This document shows, piece after piece, positions 3,244-53,885 of a DNA stretch of 64,000 nucleotides. Both the position numbers and the translations under genes were made by a program. Below the pieces are notes generated by a model, which saw nothing but the letters and a program-made list of their open reading frames with translations, was not told the origin of the DNA and did not search any database. The stretch lies in the NCBI GenBank assembly GCA_965287045.1, contig OZ336886.1:10168001-10232000 (forward strand), given 5' to 3'. This DNA is from Carcharhinus amblyrhynchos. Its lineage: Eukaryota. Every line of letters begins with the position of its first letter. Position 1 is the first letter of the stretch.

Positions 3244-3872
3244 TAAGAACATAAGAAATAGGAGCAGGAGTAGGCCATCTAGCCCTTCGAGCCTGCCCCG
3301 CCATTCAATAAGATCATGGCTGATCTGTTGTGGCTCAGTTCCACTTTCCCGCCCTCTCCCCATAACCCTTAATCCCCTCTCTTATCAAGAACCCATCAAC
3401 CCGCTTCTTAAAAATATTTAGCGAGGCAGCCTCCACCACTTCAACGGGCAGAGAATTCCAGAGATTCACCACCCTTTGAGTGAAGAAGTTCCTCCTCAAC
3501 TCCATTCTAAACCGCCTCCCCTTTATCTTGAGGCTGTGCCCCCTAGTCCTACTGTCTTTTTTGAGCGGGAAGAGTCTCTCCACCTCTATCCTATCCATCC
3601 CATTCATCATCTTATACGTCTCAATGAGATCTCCCCTCATTCTTCTAAACTCTAACGAGTACAAGCCTAGTTTATTCAGCCTCTCCTCATAGCTCAATCC
3701 CCTCAACTCCGGTATCAGCCTAGTAAACCTCCTCTGCACTCCCTCCAGGGCCAAAATATCCTTGCGCAGGTGCGGCGCCCAAAACTGCACACAGTACTCC
3801 AGCTGCGGCCTCACCAATGCCCTATACAGCTGCAGCAAGACCTCCCTACTTTTATATTCAATCCCCCTCGCT
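3244..3872 (-). mobile_element. Young 5'-truncated CR1 LINE (ORF2 C-terminus and 3' UTR)
   Basis: Open frame LYRALVRPQLEYCVQFWAPHL...RRNFFTQRVVNLWNSLP; (ttcttatg) tail; nearly identical to 29009-29711. Confidence 0.95.
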
Positions 3873-3874
3873 TC

Positions 3875-4140
3875 TCGGTGCTTGTCCTCTGATGTGGATG
3901 TAAAAGATTTCATGACCCCATTTGGAGAAGGAAAGAGGAATTCTCTTCAGTGCCATGTCCAATAACTGTCCCAGTACCAACATTGTTGAACGAATGATTT
4001 TGTTATTGTTTATGGGAGCTTCCTGCATGCAAATTGAATGTTAAATGTTACACGAATAATTGGTTTGGAGGTATTTGAGTGAGTGGCTGCTTTTAGGTGT
4101 GCTGAGATCATGAAAGACACTTCATAAAACAAACTTGTCA
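3875..4140 (+). mobile_element. Decayed Deu-domain SINE (SacSINE1-like), 3' part; 5' part probably at about 3190-3243, split by the CR1
   Basis: gtggatgtaaaagatttcatg...gggagcttcctgcatgcaaattg...atgaaagacacttcataaa resembles the recalled DeuSINE core and tail. Confidence 0.65.
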
Positions 4141-10422: not shown

Positions 10423-10629
10423 GCAGAACAAGACAACAGACACCCACTGCCAGCTTTTGCCAATTTGCACATAGAGGTTCTAGATGAAAACAACCAAGCC
10501 CCCTACTTCGAGCAAGCTACCTACCAGGGCTTCATCATTGAGTCTGCTCCAGTGGGGACAACCCTTTCGGACAGTCGGAATTTAACTGCACCTTTAAGAA
10601 TTGTGGCCCTGGACAAGGATGTGGAGGAG
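10423..10629 (+). CDS. PCDH15: PCDH15 coding exon, 207 bp (equivalent to human exon 11; end of EC3 and start of EC4)
   Basis: Acceptor ttttctgtttctcgactAG, donor GTAAGT. Translates [69 protein letters not shown], matching recalled PCDH15 [29 protein letters not shown]...[11 protein letters not shown]. Phase 0/0. Confidence 0.97.
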
Positions 10630-10839: not shown

Positions 10840-10975
10840 AGCACTGCAGAGCCTGTTCCATGTGTAGTAACACTTAGTGGTGGTTAGATGATATTGAGGA
10901 TATTTTAATCTCATCCTCATGGAATCCGTTTCCATTTGTTTGAATCTTTCTTTCTTTTTGTCTGTTTGTTTGTAG

Positions 10976-10996
10976 GTGCCATCACATGCTACGCCT
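10976..10996 (+). CDS. PCDH15: Candidate 21-nt alternative microexon (VPSHATP), equivalent to mammalian PCDH15 exon 12a (VPPSGVP)
   Basis: Long T-rich tract, then tgtAG|GTG CCA TCA CAT GCT ACG CCT|GTATGT. Seven codons, phase 0/0, between the DKDVEE and TKDP exons. Confidence 0.85.
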
Positions 10997-11999
10997 GTAT
11001 GTATTTATTGTTGTTTTATCTGTCTGTGCGTGTGCCAGATATTTTATCTGTTGCATGTTTGTGCTTCTTGTCGAGTTGTTTTGTTTTTAAATTTCGCTAG
11101 CCAACTGATCGGGTTTGCAATTTTGCTTTAATATATATTCCAGTAAATTTTGTCCATCAACTGCCCTACACACACACATGTACACACACACCCCTGCATG
11201 AGTCTGTATTGTATGTATATTTCTGCCCTGGTAAGTTGCTGACATTGTAAGACCTTGCTCTTTAATTAAATAATAATGGATGACCATTGTTCTTGAACAG
11301 ACAACTAAGGACAGCCAGGTTAATTTGACAAATGAAATCCAGGGTCAAGCTTTTTCGGCTAAGTCCTTTCTCTGGGTCGTGATGGATAGTAATTGTTTTT
11401 TTTTAGTATTTGATTGTAATTTCAGCTACTGTTCAATCACATTTTTCAAAATCCTACTTTCTAATGGCAGAACATTGTATGATAGCTCAATTGAAGCTAA
11501 TCATGACTGATTAAGAAAACGCTTGCTGAATACTTTAACAGATGACGGAATGTTAACGTCAGTGGAAACTCACCAGCTGTTCTCATTGGCTGTGAAAATG
11601 GCCACATATTAAATTGAAACAATTATCTGGAATCCCGATAAGAGAACCTGGCCTTCCCGACTCTTATCTCAACACAGGCTTCCTGTTCAATAGCTGAACT
11701 ATTTTACATATCACCAGTTGGAAAACTGAATTGATCTAACAACATTTTTTTTCCCCAGCGTGTCAGCATTTTTAAATGCTTTTCTGTGCAATTTAGTTGA
11801 AACGCTTGTCAGCCTTAGTGGGGTCAAAATTTTCTCGCCCCCAAAATCAGACACTGGGATCGCAAAATGCGGCTAACTAACCCTGGCTCAGTGTAACTCG
11901 GGCAGAAGGTGAAATCTGTACTCCCTACTGTTTTACATGGGTGTACTGTGCAGCCTGCACACATCGTGTTGCTAATTGGCCAGAACATGAGTAGGGGTC

Positions 12000-23809: not shown

Positions 23810-23944
23810 ACAAAAGACCCAAAGTTGCGGATTTCACTGAGCGACTTTGTCACAGCTTTTACCGTAACTCCTTTTGGAATAACTCGTTATCTGACTTTGC
23901 GCGAGCCGGTTGACCGGGAACGTCAACAGAATTACACTTTCACG
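23810..23944 (+). CDS. PCDH15: PCDH15 coding exon, 135 bp (EC4)
   Basis: tttctttcaAG|ACA...ACG|GTAAGA. Translates [45 protein letters not shown], with a cadherin DRE motif. Confidence 0.97.
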
Positions 23945-25696: not shown

Positions 25697-27835
25697 TTGT
25701 CATAGCTTCTCCGCTCTGGGGAAGTACTGGATGATAAAGGGTACTCTGTCCACCATGTCCCGTGTTTGTCTTCTGAGGAGGTCGGTGGGGTTTTTCGCTG
25801 TGGCGTGTTGGAACTTTCGATCAATGAGTTGAGTGCCGTATCCTGTTCTTACGAGGGCGTCTTTCAGCGTCTGAATGTGTCTGTTGCGACCCTCCTCATC
25901 TGAGCAGATCCGATGTTTACGGAGGGCTTGTTCGTAGGGGATGGCTTCTTTAACGTGTTTAGCGTGGAAGTTGGAGAAGTGGAGCATCGTGAGATTATCC
26001 AGGGGCTTGTGGTACAGTGAGGTGCTGAGGTGACTGTCCTTGATGGAGATGCATGTGTCCAAGAATGCAACCGATTCTGGAGAGTAATCCATAGTGAGTC
26101 TAATGGTGGGATGGAATTTGTTGATGTCATTATATAGTTGTTTCAGTGATTGTTCACCATGAGTCCAAAGGAAGAAAATGTCATTGATGTATCTAGTGTA
26201 TATCATCAGTTGAATGTCCTGTGTGGTGAAGAAGTCTTGTTTGAACCTGTGCATGAAGATGTTGGCATATTGAGGTGCGAATTTGGTCCCCATGGCTGTT
26301 CTGTGTATCTGGATGAAGAACTGGTTGTTGAAGGTGAAGACATTGTGGTCCAGGATGAAACGGATGAGTTGTATAATTGCATCTGGAAACTGGCAGTTGT
26401 CAGTGTTGAGTACTGAGGCAGCTACAGCAATGCCATCATCATGGGGGATGCTGGTGTAGAGTGCTGAGACATCCATTGTGACAAGGAGTGCCCCTGGTTC
26501 AACTGCTCCACGTGTGTTGAGTTTCTGCAGGAAGTCCGTAGTGTTGCAACAAAAGCTGTACAATGGGTTTCAGGATGCCCTTGACATAGCCGGAGAGGTT
26601 GTCGCACAGGGTCCCATTGCTCGATACAATGGGACGGCCGGGTTTGTTTGTCTTGTGTATCTTCAGGAGGCAGTAAGATCTCCAATGTGGGGAGTACGTG
26701 GGATGAGAGCACGGAGGGTGCTCTACAGGTCTGGATCAAAGGTCTTGATCAGTCTGTTGAGTTGACGGGTATGTTCTTTGGTTGGATCTGCGAGTAACTG
26801 TCTCTGGTGTTCTGCATTGTTCAGCTGTCGGTACACTTTTTTGCAGTGATCAGTATGACGATGGCCCCTCATTTGTCTGCTAGTTTGATGACAATGTTGC
26901 GGTTGGTCTTGAGAGCGGGGGTGGCATTGCGTTGTGCTTGAGTGATATTCAGGGCTGTCTTGTGAGTGTGGCCAATGAATCTGGTATCGACGCATCTCCT
27001 GATGACTAGGGCATACATGTCAAGTCGAGGGCAGCGGCCTTCCGGAGGAGTACATTTGGACTCTTTCATCTTCGGTTGCTGCACCACAGATCTCTCTGTC
27101 GGCTGTTCTGGTTTATTGGCAGTCTCATTGTGTTCGCTGTTGGCCTCTTGGGGTTTGTGGAAGAACTCCCGCAGCCTCATTTGCCTAATCAATTCCTCTG
27201 TGTCTGCTGCGAGACTGATGGGGTCCATTTTTGTGGTGATTTCATCTGGTTGAAGTGTGTAGTCTGACAAGTTGACATTGGAGTTCCCTGCAGTGGCACC
27301 TGTGGAGGGCTAGGTTGCTGCTGGTGGTGATGCCGAGTTTCTCAAGTTTCCTGTTCTTGGTGTGCATGTAGGTGGTGTAGTTCCTTTGTCTCGTCTGCTT
27401 GGCAGAGTTTCGCAGCTGGCCTGCGTCCTGAGCGCAAGTTGAGAATATGGATTCTATCGTGGTTTCCAGGACACGGCGTTTGCTGTAGAGCTAGTGTTTG
27501 AAGTGGTTGAGGAGTGTGAGAGAGGTGCGATGGCAAAGTCTGTCAGCATTGTCTGTGTTGTAGGTTGACCTGAGTGGGTTTGTGATCTGTAGTCCTTTCG
27601 ATCGCTAGTCTGCTTTCGTGCATTTTTGTAGAAACTTGATGCTTGTGTCGATATGCGCAATCTTCTTGGAGATCCTCTCCACTTGGAGCCGGCAGTTTGC
27701 AGTGTCGATGGTAGCCATGATGTGGAGATGCCGGCGCTGGACCGGGGCATACACAGCAAGAAGTCCCACTACACCAGACCAAAGTCCGACAGGTCCACCT
27801 GGTAGCAAATGCCACTAGCCCTCAGAGCACCACTT
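25697..27835 (-). mobile_element. Penelope-like retroelement, 5' part (ATG at 27718 through RT), frameshifted and lacking GIY-YIG
   Basis: MATIDTANCRLQVERISKK N-terminus; NRNIVIKLADK; RT motifs LVTMDVSALYTSIPHDDG, TAMGTKFAPQYANIFM, YTRYINDIFFLW. Confidence 0.95.
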
Positions 27836-29008: not shown

Positions 29009-29711
29009 ATAAGAACATAAGAAATAGGAGCAGGAGTAGGCCATCTAGCCCTTCGAGCCTGCCCCGCCATTCAATAAGATCATGGCTGATCTGTCGCTGC
29101 TCAGTTCCACTTTTCCGCCCTCTCCCCATAACCCTTAATCCCCTCTCCTATCAAAAACCCATCAACCCGCGTCTTAAAAATATTTAGCGAGGCAGCCTCC
29201 ACCACTTCAACGGGCAGAGAATTCCAGAGATTCACCACCCTTTGAGTGAAGAAGTTCCTCCTCAACTCCGTTCTAAACCGCCCCCCTTTTATCTTGAGGC
29301 TGTGCCCCCTAGTCCTATTGTCTTTTTTGAGCGGGAAGAGTCTTTCCACCTCTATCCTATCCATCCCATTCATCATCTTATACGTCTCAATGAGATCTCC
29401 TCTCATTCTTCTAAACTCTAACGAGTACAAGCCCAGTTTATTCAGCCTCTCCTCATAGCTCAACCCCCTCAACTCCGGTATCAGCCTAGTAAACCTCCTC
29501 TGCACTCCCTCCAAGGCCAAAATATCTTTGCGCAGGTGCGGCGCCCAAAAATGCACACGGTACTCCAGTTGCGGCCTCACCAATGCCCTATACAGCTGCA
29601 GCAAGACCTCCCTACTTTTATATTCAATCTCCTTCGCTATGAAGGCCAGCATCCCATTCGCCTTCCTGACCACCTGCTGCACCTGCAAGCTGGGTTTTTG
29701 CGACTCATGCA
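29009..29711 (-). mobile_element. Young 5'-truncated CR1 LINE
   Basis: Open 203-aa frame (KANGMLAFIAKEIEYKSREVLLQLYRALVRP...); nearly identical to 3244-3872. Confidence 0.95.
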
Positions 29712-30667
29712 AAAAAACACACTATGGTGTCTCAAGTGTGCAAAGCAGTCAAATGAGCAGTGGCCCAGCTGCCATTAATTGATAGAATCATGAAGTGTGG
29801 AAAAGGCCCTTGATCTGTTGAGTTTGGATCACCAGCCCCTTCATGGGCAAGGCTGAGATGTGAAGATCTTCTTGAGAACATTTATGAAATCCCAAACTTT
29901 GCTCTTCCTATCAGGGTCAGGAAAGAGAGAATGTGCCTTCCAGTTTGTTAGGTTCTTTAGTAGAGAAGATTGTGATTTGGATTCATGCGTAAAAAAGATT
30001 TATACCACCAATTGCACTTTATTAGCTTTACCAAATAAATTTATGCTCTTATTTCTGCTGCAAGGGGTAAAAGCAGATAATGATGATGTTTTCTGCTGTT
30101 GAGCTTGACCACATGTTTTTTCTTTTGTGCTATATTCAAAAAGCCCTTAAAAAGCTTAGAAACATGGATGCTAAGCAAATAATCTCAATGTCTGAAAAGA
30201 TAGGTTTGAGGTGTGCATGGGTATTGGCCCTTTAGTCTTGTTCACTGAATTGATGGGTTGCAAACCACAGGAAAGGACATTAGTGGTGAGTTGGCAGGGC
30301 AGAGGCCAGGACCAATGAGAGTGAAAATGGTGGAGTGAGAGAGGGTAATCTGTAGATAGATGTAATCTGCGGTGAACTGGGTTTGAGGTACTGGTGGCCA
30401 GTGGATGTCCCATCTTGCTTTTGTATGGGTTCTGGAGGACCCTGCCAGCTCCACCTTCACACAAGAATATTTTAAACACTACCCTTCTTAGTTGCTGCCT
30501 GCAGTGGTTCTTTAAAGGACTTTCTGTTTGGCCATACAGTGCCACCTTCATTCAGCGAATCCAACATTATAAAAACCAGCTTCGAGGACTGTTGGCCACT
30601 TATTTCAACAGCATAATTGTCCTTGTCAGCATTGTTGTATTTGAGTAAGTCCAGGTTTAACGCTTTT

Positions 30668-35468: not shown

Positions 35469-35662
35469 CTCACTGCATCAGATGCTGATGAAGAGAAGAA
35501 TGGACAAATCATTTATGAAATTGTGACTGGTGATGGTGGTGACTTTGTCATAAATAACAGCAGTGGATTGATTACTGTTGCTCCTGAAGTTAGTTTAGTT
35601 GTTGGACGAACCTATGCCCTGACTGTCAAAGCAACAGATAATGCTCAGCTAGGTCAAAGGAG
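35469..35662 (+). CDS. PCDH15: PCDH15 coding exon, 194 bp (EC5)
   Basis: tgtttcAG|CTC...AG|GTAAGT. Translates [64 protein letters not shown](R); ends in phase 2. Confidence 0.97.
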
Positions 35663-40984: not shown

Positions 40985-43900
40985 CAGATTGAAACCAGTG
41001 GAGTGTAGTATGTGTTTTATTGATCTTTTCCTGCGCTTCACAGTCCATCAAAATCTCACTTTCATTTCAAGGATGTCATTACATGTACCCGGGTTTTGCA
41101 GCTGGAGCAGCTGCTGTGGACACAGTAGATCAACCGTGAGGCGGAGAAGATCGTGGTCAGCATGTATGGAGAGATGGTCACACCGCAGGCTAAGATTCCC
41201 CAGGCAGGAAGGGAAATAGATGAGAGAGCGAGGCAGGCAGTGCAGGAATCTGCTGTGGCCATTCCCCTGAAAAAACAGATATACTGCTTTGGATACTGTT
41301 GAGGGGAATGACCTCTCAGGGAAAAACAGCAACAGCCAAATTTTTTGCACCGTAGTTGGTTCTGCTGCAGAAAGAAGGAGTAAAAATATGGCAATGCAAT
41401 AGTTATAGGGGATTCAATTGTAAGGGGAATAGATAGGCGTTTCTGTGGCTGCAGGATGGTATGTTGCCTCCTTGGTGCTGGGGTCATGGATGTCTTGGAG
41501 AGGTTACAAGACATTGTAGAGGGCAAAGATGAACAGCCAGTGATCATGGTACATATAGGTACCAATGACAGAGGTAAAAGAAGAGATGAAGTCCTGAAAG
41601 CAGAATGTAGGGAGTTAGGAAGAACATTGAGAAGTTGGATTTCAGATATGGTGATCTCAGGATTACTACCACTGCCACGTGCTCGTCAGAGGAGAAATAG
41701 CAGGATGTATTGGATGAGTACATAGCTCAAGAGATGGTATAATGGGGGAAGGTTGCAGATTTGTGGGGCATTGGGACCAGTTCTGAGGGAGATGTACAAA
41801 CTGGATGGATTACACCCGGGTAGGACGAGGACTGATATCCTATGGGGGAGTGTTTGGTAGAGTGGTTGGGGGTGGTTTATACTGAAGTGACAAGGGCATG
41901 GAAACCAATGCAAGAAATCAGAGGAGGGGGAATCAAGGACAAAAATCAAAGCATAGAAGAGGAATAAGCAGAGAAATCAAGGTCCAAATTCAAAGAGGGC
42001 TTCAATGAAAATTAGTGGAAACGGGACCAGTAATGTTAAAAAGATGAACCTAAAGGCTTTGTACCTTAATGTGCGAAGCATTCACAATAAAAAGTGGATG
42101 AACTAATCATGCAAATAGATGTAAACATGTATGATATAGTTAGGATTACAGAGGCATGGCTGCAGGGTGACCTGAGATAGGAACTGAACATCCAGGGGTA
42201 TTCAGTACTTAAGAAGGACAGACAAAAAGATAAAGGCAGCAGAGTTGCATTGCTAGTGAAAGAGAAAATTAACATCATACTGAGGAAGGATATTTGCTTT
42301 GACAATATGGAATCTCTATAGGTACAGATAGGAAACACCTAGGGGCAAAATCATTAGAAGAGGTTGTACATGGATTCCCAAACTGTAGTGGTGATTTTGG
42401 GAACGACATTACACAGGAAGTTAGAGATGCAATAAAGGAACATCTGTAATTATGGATGATGTTAATCTGTACGTAGATTAGGCAAATCAAATTAGTCGCA
42501 ATACCTTAGAGGAAGGATTCCTGGGGTGTACATGGGATGGTTTTCTTGACCAACAAGTTGAGGAATCAACTAGAGCAGGGCATTCTAGAATGGGTATTTA
42601 TATTGAGAAAGTAACAATTGGCAATGCGGTGTGTGACCCCTTGGGGAAGAGCGACTGTAACATAATAGAACTTTTCATCAACATGGAGAGTGATGGAGTT
42701 GATTCGGAGACTAGATCCTGAATCTTAATAAAAGAAACTACTATTATGTGATGTACGAGTTGGCTACTATAGATTTGGAAACATTACTTAAAGAGATGAT
42801 GGTGCATAAGCAATGGCAAACATTCAAGGAGCGCATGGAAGAACTGCAACAGTGGTTTTTTCCTGACTGGTGCAAAAGTAAAACTGAAAAGGTGGCCAAA
42901 CCACGGCTTGCAAGAGAAATTAGAGATTGTATTAGATCCAAGGGAGAGGCATACAAATTGGCCAAGCAAAACAAAAAAAGGTAGGTAGAGAGAAAACAGG
43001 GAATTATAGACCAGTAAGCCTGAAGTCAGTAGTGGGGAAAGTTCTAGAATCCATTATCAAAGATTTTATAGCAAAACACTTGGAAAACAGTGGTAGGATC
43101 AGACTGAGTCAACATGGATCTATGAAAGGAAATCATGCTTGTTAAATCTACTGGTGTGTGGATGTAGCTTTTTTAGCTTTCAGAAAGCTTTCAACAAAAT
43201 CCACAAGAGATTTGCATGTAAAATTAAAGCATATGGGATTTGGGGTAGTGTATTGAGATGGATAGAAAACTGGTCAGCAGACAGAAAATAAGAATAGCAG
43301 TAAATGGGTCTTTTTCCAAATGGCAGGCAGTGACTAGTAGGGTACCACAGGATTGGTGCTAGGACCCCACCAATTCACAATACATATTAATGATTTAGAT
43401 GAGGGAATTAAATGTAATTTCCCAAACTTGGAGATGGCATAAAACTAGTTGGGAGGGTAAGCTGCAAGGAGGATGCAGGGACACTTCAGTGTGGCTTGGA
43501 CAAGTTGAGCAAAAGAATAAGGAGGCAATGTAATTTGGATAAATGTGAGGTTATCCACTTAGGTAGCAAAAATGGGAGGCAGAATATTATCTGAAAGGCC
43601 GTAAATTAGGAGAGGGGAATGTGCGACATAAACTGGGTGTCCTCGTACACCAGTCATTGAAAATAAGTATGCAGATGCACCAGGCAGTAAAAAAGGCAAA
43701 TGGTATATTGGCCTTGAAAGTGAGAGGATTTGAGTGCAGGAGATGGATATTTTGCTGCAATACAGGGCCTTGGTGAGGCTACACCTGGAATATTGCGTGC
43801 AGTTGTGGCCCCCTTATCTGAGGAAGGATGTTCTTGCTCTGGAGAGAGTGCAGAGAAGGTTTGCTGGACTGATTCCTAAGATGGCAGGACTGATGTATGA

Positions 43901-44317
43901 AGAAAGATTGAGTCGGTTAGGATTGTATTCACTGGAATTCAGAAGAATGAGTGAGGATCTGATAGAAACCTATAAAATTCTTCCAGAACTAGACAGAGTA
44001 GATGCAAGAAGAAAGTTCCTAATAGCGTGGGTGTCCAGAACCAGAGGTCACAGTCTGAGAAAACAGGCTGGGCAGTTTAGGCCAGAGATGCGGAGAAATA
44101 TCCTCACCCAAAGAGTGGCTAGCTTGTGGAATTTACGACCTCAAAAAATAGCTGAGGCCAAAATATTGTATGTTTTCAGGTAGGAGTTAGATATAGCACT
44201 TTGGGCAAAAGGAATCAAAGGATAGGGGGAAAAGGCAGGATCAGGCTATTGAGTTGGATGATTCGGCATGACCATAATAAATGGAGGAGCAGGCTCCTAT
44301 TTTTTGTGTTTCCTTTT
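40985..44317 (+). mobile_element. Near-full-length but decayed, internally deleted CR1 LINE (ORF1 esterase, APE, RT, 3' UTR)
   Basis: VIGDSIVRGIDRRFC...VCCLLGAGVMDV...VHIGTND (SGNH esterase); LNVRSIHNK and GITEAWL (APE); YRALVRLHLEYCVQLWPPYL. Confidence 0.92.
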
Positions 44318-52391: not shown

Positions 52392-53885
52392 GATGATGTG
52401 GAGATGCTGGCATTGGACTTGGGTGGGCAGTAAGTAGTCTCACAACACCAGGTTAAAATCCAACAAGTTTATTTGGTAGCAAAAGCTTTCGGAGTGCCGT
52501 TCCTTCATCAAGCGATTGCAGGATTTGTTTCACAAACAGGGCATATGTAAACACAAACTCAATTACAATGGTTGGAATGCGAGTCTTTACAGGTAATCAA
52601 GTCTTTACAGGGTGCGGAAAATGTGAGTGGAGAGAGGGTTAAGCACAGGTTAAAGAGATGTGAATTGTCTCCAGCCAGGGCAGTTAGTGAGATTTTGCAA
52701 GCCCAGGCAAGTCGTGAGAGTTACAGATAGTGTGACATGAACCCAAGATCCCAGTTGAGGCTGTCCTCATGTGTGCGGAACTTGGCAATCAGTTTCTGCT
52801 CAGCGATTCTGCATTGTCGTGTGTTGTGAAGGCCGCCTTGGAGAACGCTTACCCGAAGATCAGAGGCTGAATACCCGTGACTGCTGAAGTGTTCCCCGAC
52901 TGGAAGGGTACACTCCTGCCTGGTGATTGTTAAGCGGTGTTCATTCACCTGTTGTGGTAGTGTCTGCATGGTCTCCCCAATATACCATGCCTTGGGACAT
53001 CCTTTCCTGCAGCGTATCAGGTAGACAACATTGGCCGAGTCGCAAGAGTATGTACTGTGTACCCGGTGGTTGGTGAAGCCATCTCATCTCACGTGAGATG
53101 ATGGCATCCATTTCAATGATCCAGTACATCTTGCAGACGTTGCTGTGGCAAGGTTGTGTGGAATTGTGATCACTGTTCTCCTGAAGACTGGGTAGTTTGC
53201 TACGTATAATGGACCTGTTTGAGGTTGTGCAGTTGTTTGAAGGCAAGTAGTGAGGATGTGGCCTTGGTGAGATGTTCGTCTTCATTGATGACATGTTGAA
53301 GGCTCCAAAGAAGATGTCGTAGCTTCTCCGTTCCGGGGAAGTACTGGACGACAAAGGGTACTCTACCGTGTCCTGTGTTTGGCTTCTGAGGAGGTCTGTG
53401 TGGTTTTTCGCTGTGGTGCGTCGGAACTGTTGATCGATGAGTTGAGTGCCATATCCTATTCTTACAAGGGTGTCTTTCAGCATCTGGATGTGTCTGTTGC
53501 GATCCTCCTCATCTGAGCAGATCCCATGTATATGGAGGGCTTGGCCATAGGGGATGGCTTCAACATGTTTAGGGTGGAAGTTGGAGAAGTGGAGCATTAT
53601 GAGGTTATCCATGGGCTTGTGGTCCAGGGAAGTGCTGAGGTGACCGTCCTTGATGGAGATGTGTGTGTCCAAGAATGCAACCGATTTTGGAGAGTAGTCC
53701 TTGGTGAATCTGATGTGAGATGGAACTTATTGATGTCATCATGTAGTTGTTTTCGTGATTGTTCGCCATGAGTCCAAAGGAAGAAAATGTCATTGATGTA
53801 TCTACTGTACAGCGTTGATTGAAGGTCCTGTGCAATGAAGAAGTCTTGTTCGAACCTGTGCATGAAGGTATTGGCATATTGAGGT
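52392..53885 (-). mobile_element. Penelope-like retroelement, 3' part (RT end, GIY-YIG, terminal repeat with hammerhead remnant)
   Basis: LYSRYINDIFFLW; NEHRLTITRQECTLPVGEHFS...AEQKLIAKFRTHEDSLNWDLGFMSHY; minus-strand ttgatgaaggaacggcactccgaaagctt at about 52484-52512. Confidence 0.93.

Follow-up and report, generated by a model that had tools for sequence, protein, structure and literature searches.

A 21-nt microexon in the hearing gene PCDH15 of Carcharhinus amblyrhynchos corresponds, almost certainly, to exon 12a, an optional mini-exon already described in mammals and present in the annotation of many sharks. It was found in a stretch of 64,000 nucleotides, here called the window, where it occupies positions 10976-10996, reads GTG CCA TCA CAT GCT ACG CCT and is translated as VPSHATP. 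We consider it very probably a functional cassette microexon that preserves the reading frame, orthologous to exon 12a and derived from the last ancestor shared by all jawed vertebrates. It is also highly probable, by analogy with the predicted models of catshark and percomorphs, that the microexon is spliced into some transcripts and skipped in others. The shark exon is already implicit in RefSeq, and the value of the present analysis is one of synthesis and not of discovery.

The host gene was identified by protein homology search, in which every named top match was PCDH15. Six further PCDH15 exons were located, spread over window positions 10423 to about 61049. When the identities of these six exons were summed against 26 proteins, the values were highest for Mustelus asterias (287/296) and Cetorhinus (285/296), with 268-280 for other sharks, 247-261 for batoids and 204-223 for bony vertebrates, values that by themselves indicate a shark, probably a galeomorph. 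The features around the microexon are collected in Table 1. The intron between the exon 12 and exon 13 equivalents has a total length of 13,180 nt and is divided by the microexon into flanking introns of 346 nt on the 5' side and 12,813 nt on the 3' side. The preceding exon (10423-10629) ends with ALDKDVEE, the following exon (23810-23944) starts with TKDP, and all three exons are in phase 0/0. The position between an exon ending in DxD-x-E-E/D and one starting with TKDP corresponds to the BC loop of EC4. A preliminary description of this DNA had reported a strong pyrimidine tract with an AG, seven codons for VPSHATP, a GTATGT donor, phase 0/0 and a distance of 346 nt from the preceding exon, and all of these are present. 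The acceptor AG lies at 10974-10975 and the donor reads CCT/GTATGT. The 40 nt before the AG contain 31 pyrimidines (27 T), the highest count of the six PCDH15 acceptors compared (others 23-28). No AG occurs between 10898 and this acceptor, and YTNAY, a branch-site-like motif, is found at 10905, 10910 and 10916, i.e., 60-71 nt upstream of the microexon.

Table 1. Coordinates of the microexon, its neighboring exons and the surrounding intronic features in the window.
Feature	Position	Strand	Remarks
PCDH15 exon 12 equivalent, EC3 end to EC4 DxD motif	10423..10629	+	207 nt, phase 0/0, donor GAG/GTAAGT
3' splice-site region of microexon	10905..10975	+	YTNAY sites, U-rich pyrimidine tract, AG
Microexon VPSHATP, PCDH15 exon 12a orthologue (very probable), lengthens EC4 BC loop	10976..10996	+	
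5' splice site GTATGT	10997..11002	+	CCT/GTATGT, 6/9 consensus matches
UG-rich intronic tract	10997..11096	+	16 TG per 100 nt
GTGTG, intron position +34, candidate RBM24/RBM38 intronic enhancer	11030..11034	+	
TGCATG (RBFOX motif, +56) followed by TTTGTGC; putative likeness to worm composite site UGCAUGGUGUGC	11052..11064	+	
Second TGCATG (+199)	11195..11200	+	
PCDH15 exon 13 equivalent, begins TKDP	23810..23944	+	135 nt, phase 0/0

The intron of 13,180 nt contains 29 stretches of 21 nt bounded by AG and GT, 22 of which are open, and the microexon has the best pyrimidine tract among the 29. Scored against 11 homologous inserts, VPSHATP reached 17.5, while the next best of the 22 open candidates reached 1.3. 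The corresponding scores were 12.4 and -2.2 when only the 5 non-chondrichthyan inserts were used, and 12.0 and -0.7 with only the 3 mammalian inserts. When the splice-site condition was omitted, VPSHATP ranked 2nd (with a tied score), 19th and 26th of 9,555 open 7-mers, and the peptide alone is therefore weak evidence; the case for an exon stands on peptide, splice sites and position together. Other in-frame AG/GT candidates in the same intron, at 11101 (42 nt), 20573 (27 nt) and 22685 (33 nt), have good pyrimidine tracts and donors, but no homologous insert matched them and they were rejected.

To place the insert among jawed vertebrates, 347 PCDH15 proteins were retrieved, and the exon 12/13 junction was parsed in 341 of them (6 unparsed). 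A 7-residue insert was present in 54 (16 distinct sequences) and absent in 283, and 4 had an insert of another length. These counts are not frequencies, because in two of the three protein searches insert-bearing forms were favored on purpose. The record set is without chimaera, coelacanth, lungfish and cyclostome proteins, and absence from a gene model does not equal absence from the genome. The odd-length inserts VRLSIQKLL, VER, SFPPKGTG and VKRGEPLSSY, from UniRef models, were regarded as likely artefacts of annotation and not counted with the 7-residue inserts.

Among the chondrichthyans, an insert-bearing model was found in 10 of 19 species, namely Stegostoma, two Chiloscyllium, two Scyliorhinus, Cetorhinus, Heterodontus, Amblyraja, Hypanus and Hemitrygon. 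The remaining nine (Heptranchias, Hemiscyllium, Mustelus, Pristiophorus, Carcharodon, Rhinoraja, Pristis, Mobula and Narcine) are represented by skip-only models. In Scyliorhinus canicula, eight of the ten isoform models include the insert while X3 and X9 skip it, and the pair X1 (with) and X3 (without) displays cassette behavior at the level of models. C. punctatum has one model of each kind, and in several species the sole model includes the insert. The preliminary description had expected gene predictors to miss the exon, which holds in part: the microexon was not among the matches of a tblastn search with an insert-bearing query, and nine of the 19 species are skip-only, but the insert is annotated in the other ten, so the exon is not hidden. 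The annotated chondrichthyan isoforms agree with the microexon in gene, junction and 7-residue length. The insert VPSGATP of Cetorhinus maximus (XP_078422067.1), Stegostoma tigrinum (XP_059509133.1) and Scyliorhinus torazame (XP_072335032.1) is identical to VPSHATP in six of seven residues; VPSHATP itself occurs in none of the 341 parsed PCDH15 proteins.

Inserts at the same junction were also found in bony vertebrates. Ten teleost species in or near the pcdh15a clade carry LAPGDTP or a near variant; five of these were placed in the tree, where the clade support was 100/100. Both forms, with and without the insert, exist as predicted models within Etheostoma cragini, E. spectabile, Larimichthys and Sander. 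Megalops has LAPNATP, and its protein groups with eel pcdh15b (99/93). The amniote inserts are IPPGAIP in Rhineura, VAPGAIP in Falco, VPPGAFP in two passerines and VPPGGVP, VLPGGVP or VPPDGVP in mammals. The seven-residue mammalian insert VPPSGVP, which the preliminary description had placed at this EC4 position, is represented in the human exon 12a structure PDB 6E8F. The insert form of S. torazame aligns gap-free with this structure, while a 7-residue gap is left against PDB 5T4M, a mammalian structure lacking exon 12a, and against 5W1D and 11IY. VPPSGVP and VPSHATP are identical in three of seven residues, and both have the form V-P-x-x-x-x-P. The mammalian insert lies at the same position in the EC4 BC loop, beside the EC3-4 linker, according to passages of PMC7547225 and PMC3679001.

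Over the 16 distinct inserts, position 1 is V, L or I, position 3 is P (12) or S (4), position 4 is G (14), D (1) or N (1), position 6 is T (9), V (3), I (3) or F (1), and position 7 is P in all 16. Fish inserts have Thr at position 6 (with one exception, Ile in Amphiprion), whereas those of amniotes have Val, Ile or Phe. The microexon peptide follows the pattern h-x-[P/S]-x-x-x-P common to the other inserts, with a deviating His at position 4. The claim that the exon predates the split between cartilaginous and bony fish and kept its length and V-P...P frame is supported, as 7-residue inserts, all with Pro7, occupy this junction in sharks and rays, in teleosts and a squamate, and in birds and mammals. 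A single origin that preceded the gnathostome split would by far be the simplest reading, and gnathostome ancestry of exon 12a is well supported by the compared sequences. That the length and key prolines were kept from sharks to mammals argues that the exon is under selection.

The match to human VPPSGVP extends to only three of seven residues and the annotated distribution is patchy, as would be expected if 7-residue exons had arisen convergently at one junction in several lineages, or if the microexon were a chance intronic look-alike. We regard this as extremely improbable. Length, phase and junction are the same throughout, Pro7, the hydrophobic first residue and Pro/Ser3 are each found in 16/16 inserts and Gly4 in 14/16, and the pattern spans sharks, rays, both teleost paralogue clades, sauropsids and mammals. 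In addition, no other intronic candidate comes near in score (17.5 vs 1.3).

Several groups lacked the insert in the retrieved records. It was found in none of 15 Danio and none of 3 frog records, nor in those retrieved for eels, salmonids, syngnathids, Polyodon, Acipenser, Amia, Polypterus and osteoglossomorphs. An 861-aa catshark fragment, searched against representatives clustered at 50% identity, matched mostly giant cadherins; 3 of the 150 matches listed were PCDH15 (elephant, halibut and medaka), none of them insert-bearing, and neither a cyclostome nor a chimaera was among the matches listed. In the teleosts, the insert is annotated in percomorph pcdh15a and in a pcdh15b-like protein of tarpon. 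No retrieved pcdh15b record of zebrafish, eel, salmonid or syngnathid contained an insert, and paralogue-specific loss of the insert after the teleost genome duplication is possible. A model of Acipenser sinensis, flagged as unverified, has the exon-12 peptide twice in tandem, which is probably an assembly or annotation artefact.

The window differs from the annotated chondrichthyans in two residues of this region: His replaces Gly at position 4 of the insert, and Lys replaces Asn in the preceding DxD motif. His4 is found in none of the 16 other distinct inserts (Gly 14, Asp 1, Asn 1), and its codon is two base changes away from a Gly codon; the substitution could mean relaxed constraint. The DxD motif of EC4 reads D-K-D in the window (AAG, 10615-10617) and D-N-D in 19/19 chondrichthyan proteins; Lys in the middle position also occurs in mammals and Scleropages. 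Only 3 of 296 residues are private to the window when compared with the 19 chondrichthyan proteins. In the exon at 35472-35660, Val at exon position 43 (elsewhere mostly Asn or Lys) and Gly at position 61 (elsewhere mostly Ala) are private. His4 and the DxD Lys place two private basic residues in one EC4 loop, which may reflect chance, relaxed constraint or tuning.

Such changes would also be expected if the exon, though a real orthologue, were degenerating or seldom used in the lineage of this shark. The Gly>His change is unique and has a second private change nearby, the DxD Lys, and the closest carcharhiniform/lamniform models that lack the insert, those of Mustelus and Carcharodon, are skip-only. 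We nevertheless consider decay or rare use quite unlikely: the frame is open, acceptor and donor are intact, no other of the six acceptors compared has as strong a pyrimidine tract, the downstream motifs are present and 6/7 residues are ancestral. Single-model annotations, moreover, are often without cassette exons, as C. punctatum with its one model of each kind illustrates.

The structural consequences of the insert are described for the human protein in passages of PMC7547225, where it enlarges the EC4 BC loop with the fold unaltered. The same source considers the insert consistent with greater flexibility and raises a possible effect on calcium affinity in the EC3-4 linker, a single ion being held in two of the three linkers. 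The shark insert occupies the equivalent site, three residues C-terminal to the DxD calcium motif in EC4, and a similar effect may be expected by analogy, although both the structure and the tissue pattern of exon 12a come from mammals only. For a functional cassette exon, inclusion would add seven residues at this point and enlarge the BC loop, which adjoins the flexible EC3-4 linker. The insert would keep the fold and, judging from the human structure, may lower calcium binding and favor bending, and the mechanics of the tip link or of other links could thereby be tuned. A mini-PCDH15 in which EC3 is joined to EC9, and which is thus without EC4, rescues hearing in mice according to passages of PMC10133396; the loop is therefore not essential for tip links there. 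The mini-PCDH15 gene-therapy constructs in that source were designed without exon 12a. A crystal structure of exon 12a exists, but no tested function for it was found in the literature searched.

The first 100 nt of the downstream intron are UG-rich; their TG count is reached by 1.8% of the 100-nt stretches of the window. This tract contains GTGTG at +34, a motif absent from the 250 nt after five of the six other PCDH15 donors, and TGCATG follows in the intron at +56 and +199. GTGTG alone, a motif chosen after looking, is present in 8.6% of the 70-nt stretches of the window, whereas GTGTG and TGCATG together, likewise chosen after looking, are present in 0.5% (7 places). Two copies of TGCATG are found in 1.2% of the 250-nt stretches. 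The composite TGCATG-N0-3-TGTG occurs five times in the window, and five were reached by 4 of 100 shuffles, so it was set aside as not rare enough alone.

Passages of PMC7397384 describe the activation of Cdh23 exon 68 by RBM24 via (U)GUGUG 30 nt downstream, and the GTGTG of the shark intron is at a similar distance (+34). The Cdh23 site has a leading U (TGTGTG), whereas the window site is CGTGTG without it, and RBM24 is here a candidate regulator. RBM24 can also aid the recognition of a weak donor by U1 (PMC5558909, in part). By simple consensus matching, the microexon donor is tied with three of the six other PCDH15 donors; it is not unusually weak on this measure, which gives the weak-donor argument for RBM24 no support. 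In Rbm24 hair-cell knockouts, Pcdh15 splicing is nearly abolished, as stated in passages of PMC13099659 that cite another paper. A review (PMC10018040, in part) reports that RNA-seq of zebrafish rbm24-mutant otic vesicles was without significant splicing changes.

The RBM24-regulated event in mouse could be located through its primers. Those given for Pcdh15 in the passages of PMC13099659, in which the exon is unnamed, encode ATISES (412-417) and TGITRY (457-462). The mouse exon 12/13 junction follows residue 435 and is spanned by the amplicon. As exon 12a is the described cassette at this junction, the RBM24-regulated exon is very probably exon 12a. Together with the GTGTG at +34 and the two RBFOX sites, the primer position is suggestive of a hair-cell splicing switch of ancient origin at the hinge between EC3 and EC4. 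For the shark microexon, RBM24, acting through GUGUG (+34) in the downstream intron, would promote inclusion, with RBFOX (UGCAUG at +56 and +199) as a helper; this is a more weakly inferred part of our reading, to which we give roughly an even chance. RBM24/RBFOX control would make this a hair-cell-enriched event and not a neural microexon of the SRRM4 type.

The microexon could also be real but mainly neural, through RBFOX alone or SRRM3/4, or near-constitutive in sharks, with no role of RBM24 in hair cells. Two downstream TGCATG motifs and a length below 27 nt fit a neural microexon, TGCATG being the only motif with enrichment 3' of alternative microexons (PMC4317164, in part), and near-constitutive use would agree with the inclusion in 8/10 catshark isoform models and in the only model of several species. 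The SRRM3/4 layout, as described in passages of bioRxiv 2024.09.17.613571, has a UGC between branch point and AG and a pyrimidine tract set back from the AG. In the window, by contrast, no TGC occurs in the 100 nt upstream of the microexon and the pyrimidine tract abuts the AG, which disfavors a neural microexon of the SRRM3/4 type, although the same source gives UGC as absent in 21-26% of true SRRM4 targets, i.e., about a fifth to a quarter. The mouse event, moreover, is RBM24-dependent if the primer reasoning holds. Neural or near-constitutive use is thus conceivable, but we rate it as somewhat improbable.

Returning to control by RBM24, we tentatively propose a programme as old as the jawed vertebrates, in which RBM24, with RBFOX, would switch on the 7-residue loop at the EC3-4 hinge of PCDH15 specifically in hair-cell-type receptors, and in which the loop sequence would tune calcium binding and link compliance. 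We hold this to be possible but less than probable. In sharks, the receptors concerned could be those of the ear and lateral line and, perhaps, of the ampullae of Lorenzini. The tuning residues might be Thr6 in fish, a hydrophobic residue at that position in amniotes, and His4 with the neighboring Lys in the lineage of the window.

In the literature searched, outside which most subscription papers fall, no description of the deep conservation of exon 12a was found, nor a statement linking exon 12a, RBM24 and deep conservation. Cross-species microexon catalogues of the VastDB type may, we presume, already contain exon 12a. The supplementary species alignments of PMC7547225 may likewise already show non-mammalian inserts. 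The putative RBM24/RBFOX hair-cell switch is the part worth testing, and the probable control of exon 12a by RBM24 makes a hair-cell-specific tuning of the tip-link hinge cheaply testable. The PCDH15 introns of the window also contain open reading frames at 3335-3946, 29101-29721 and 43734-44183 and at 25700-26569 and 52721-53726, which we take to resemble C-terminal fragments of LINE-type and Penelope-type retrotransposon proteins.
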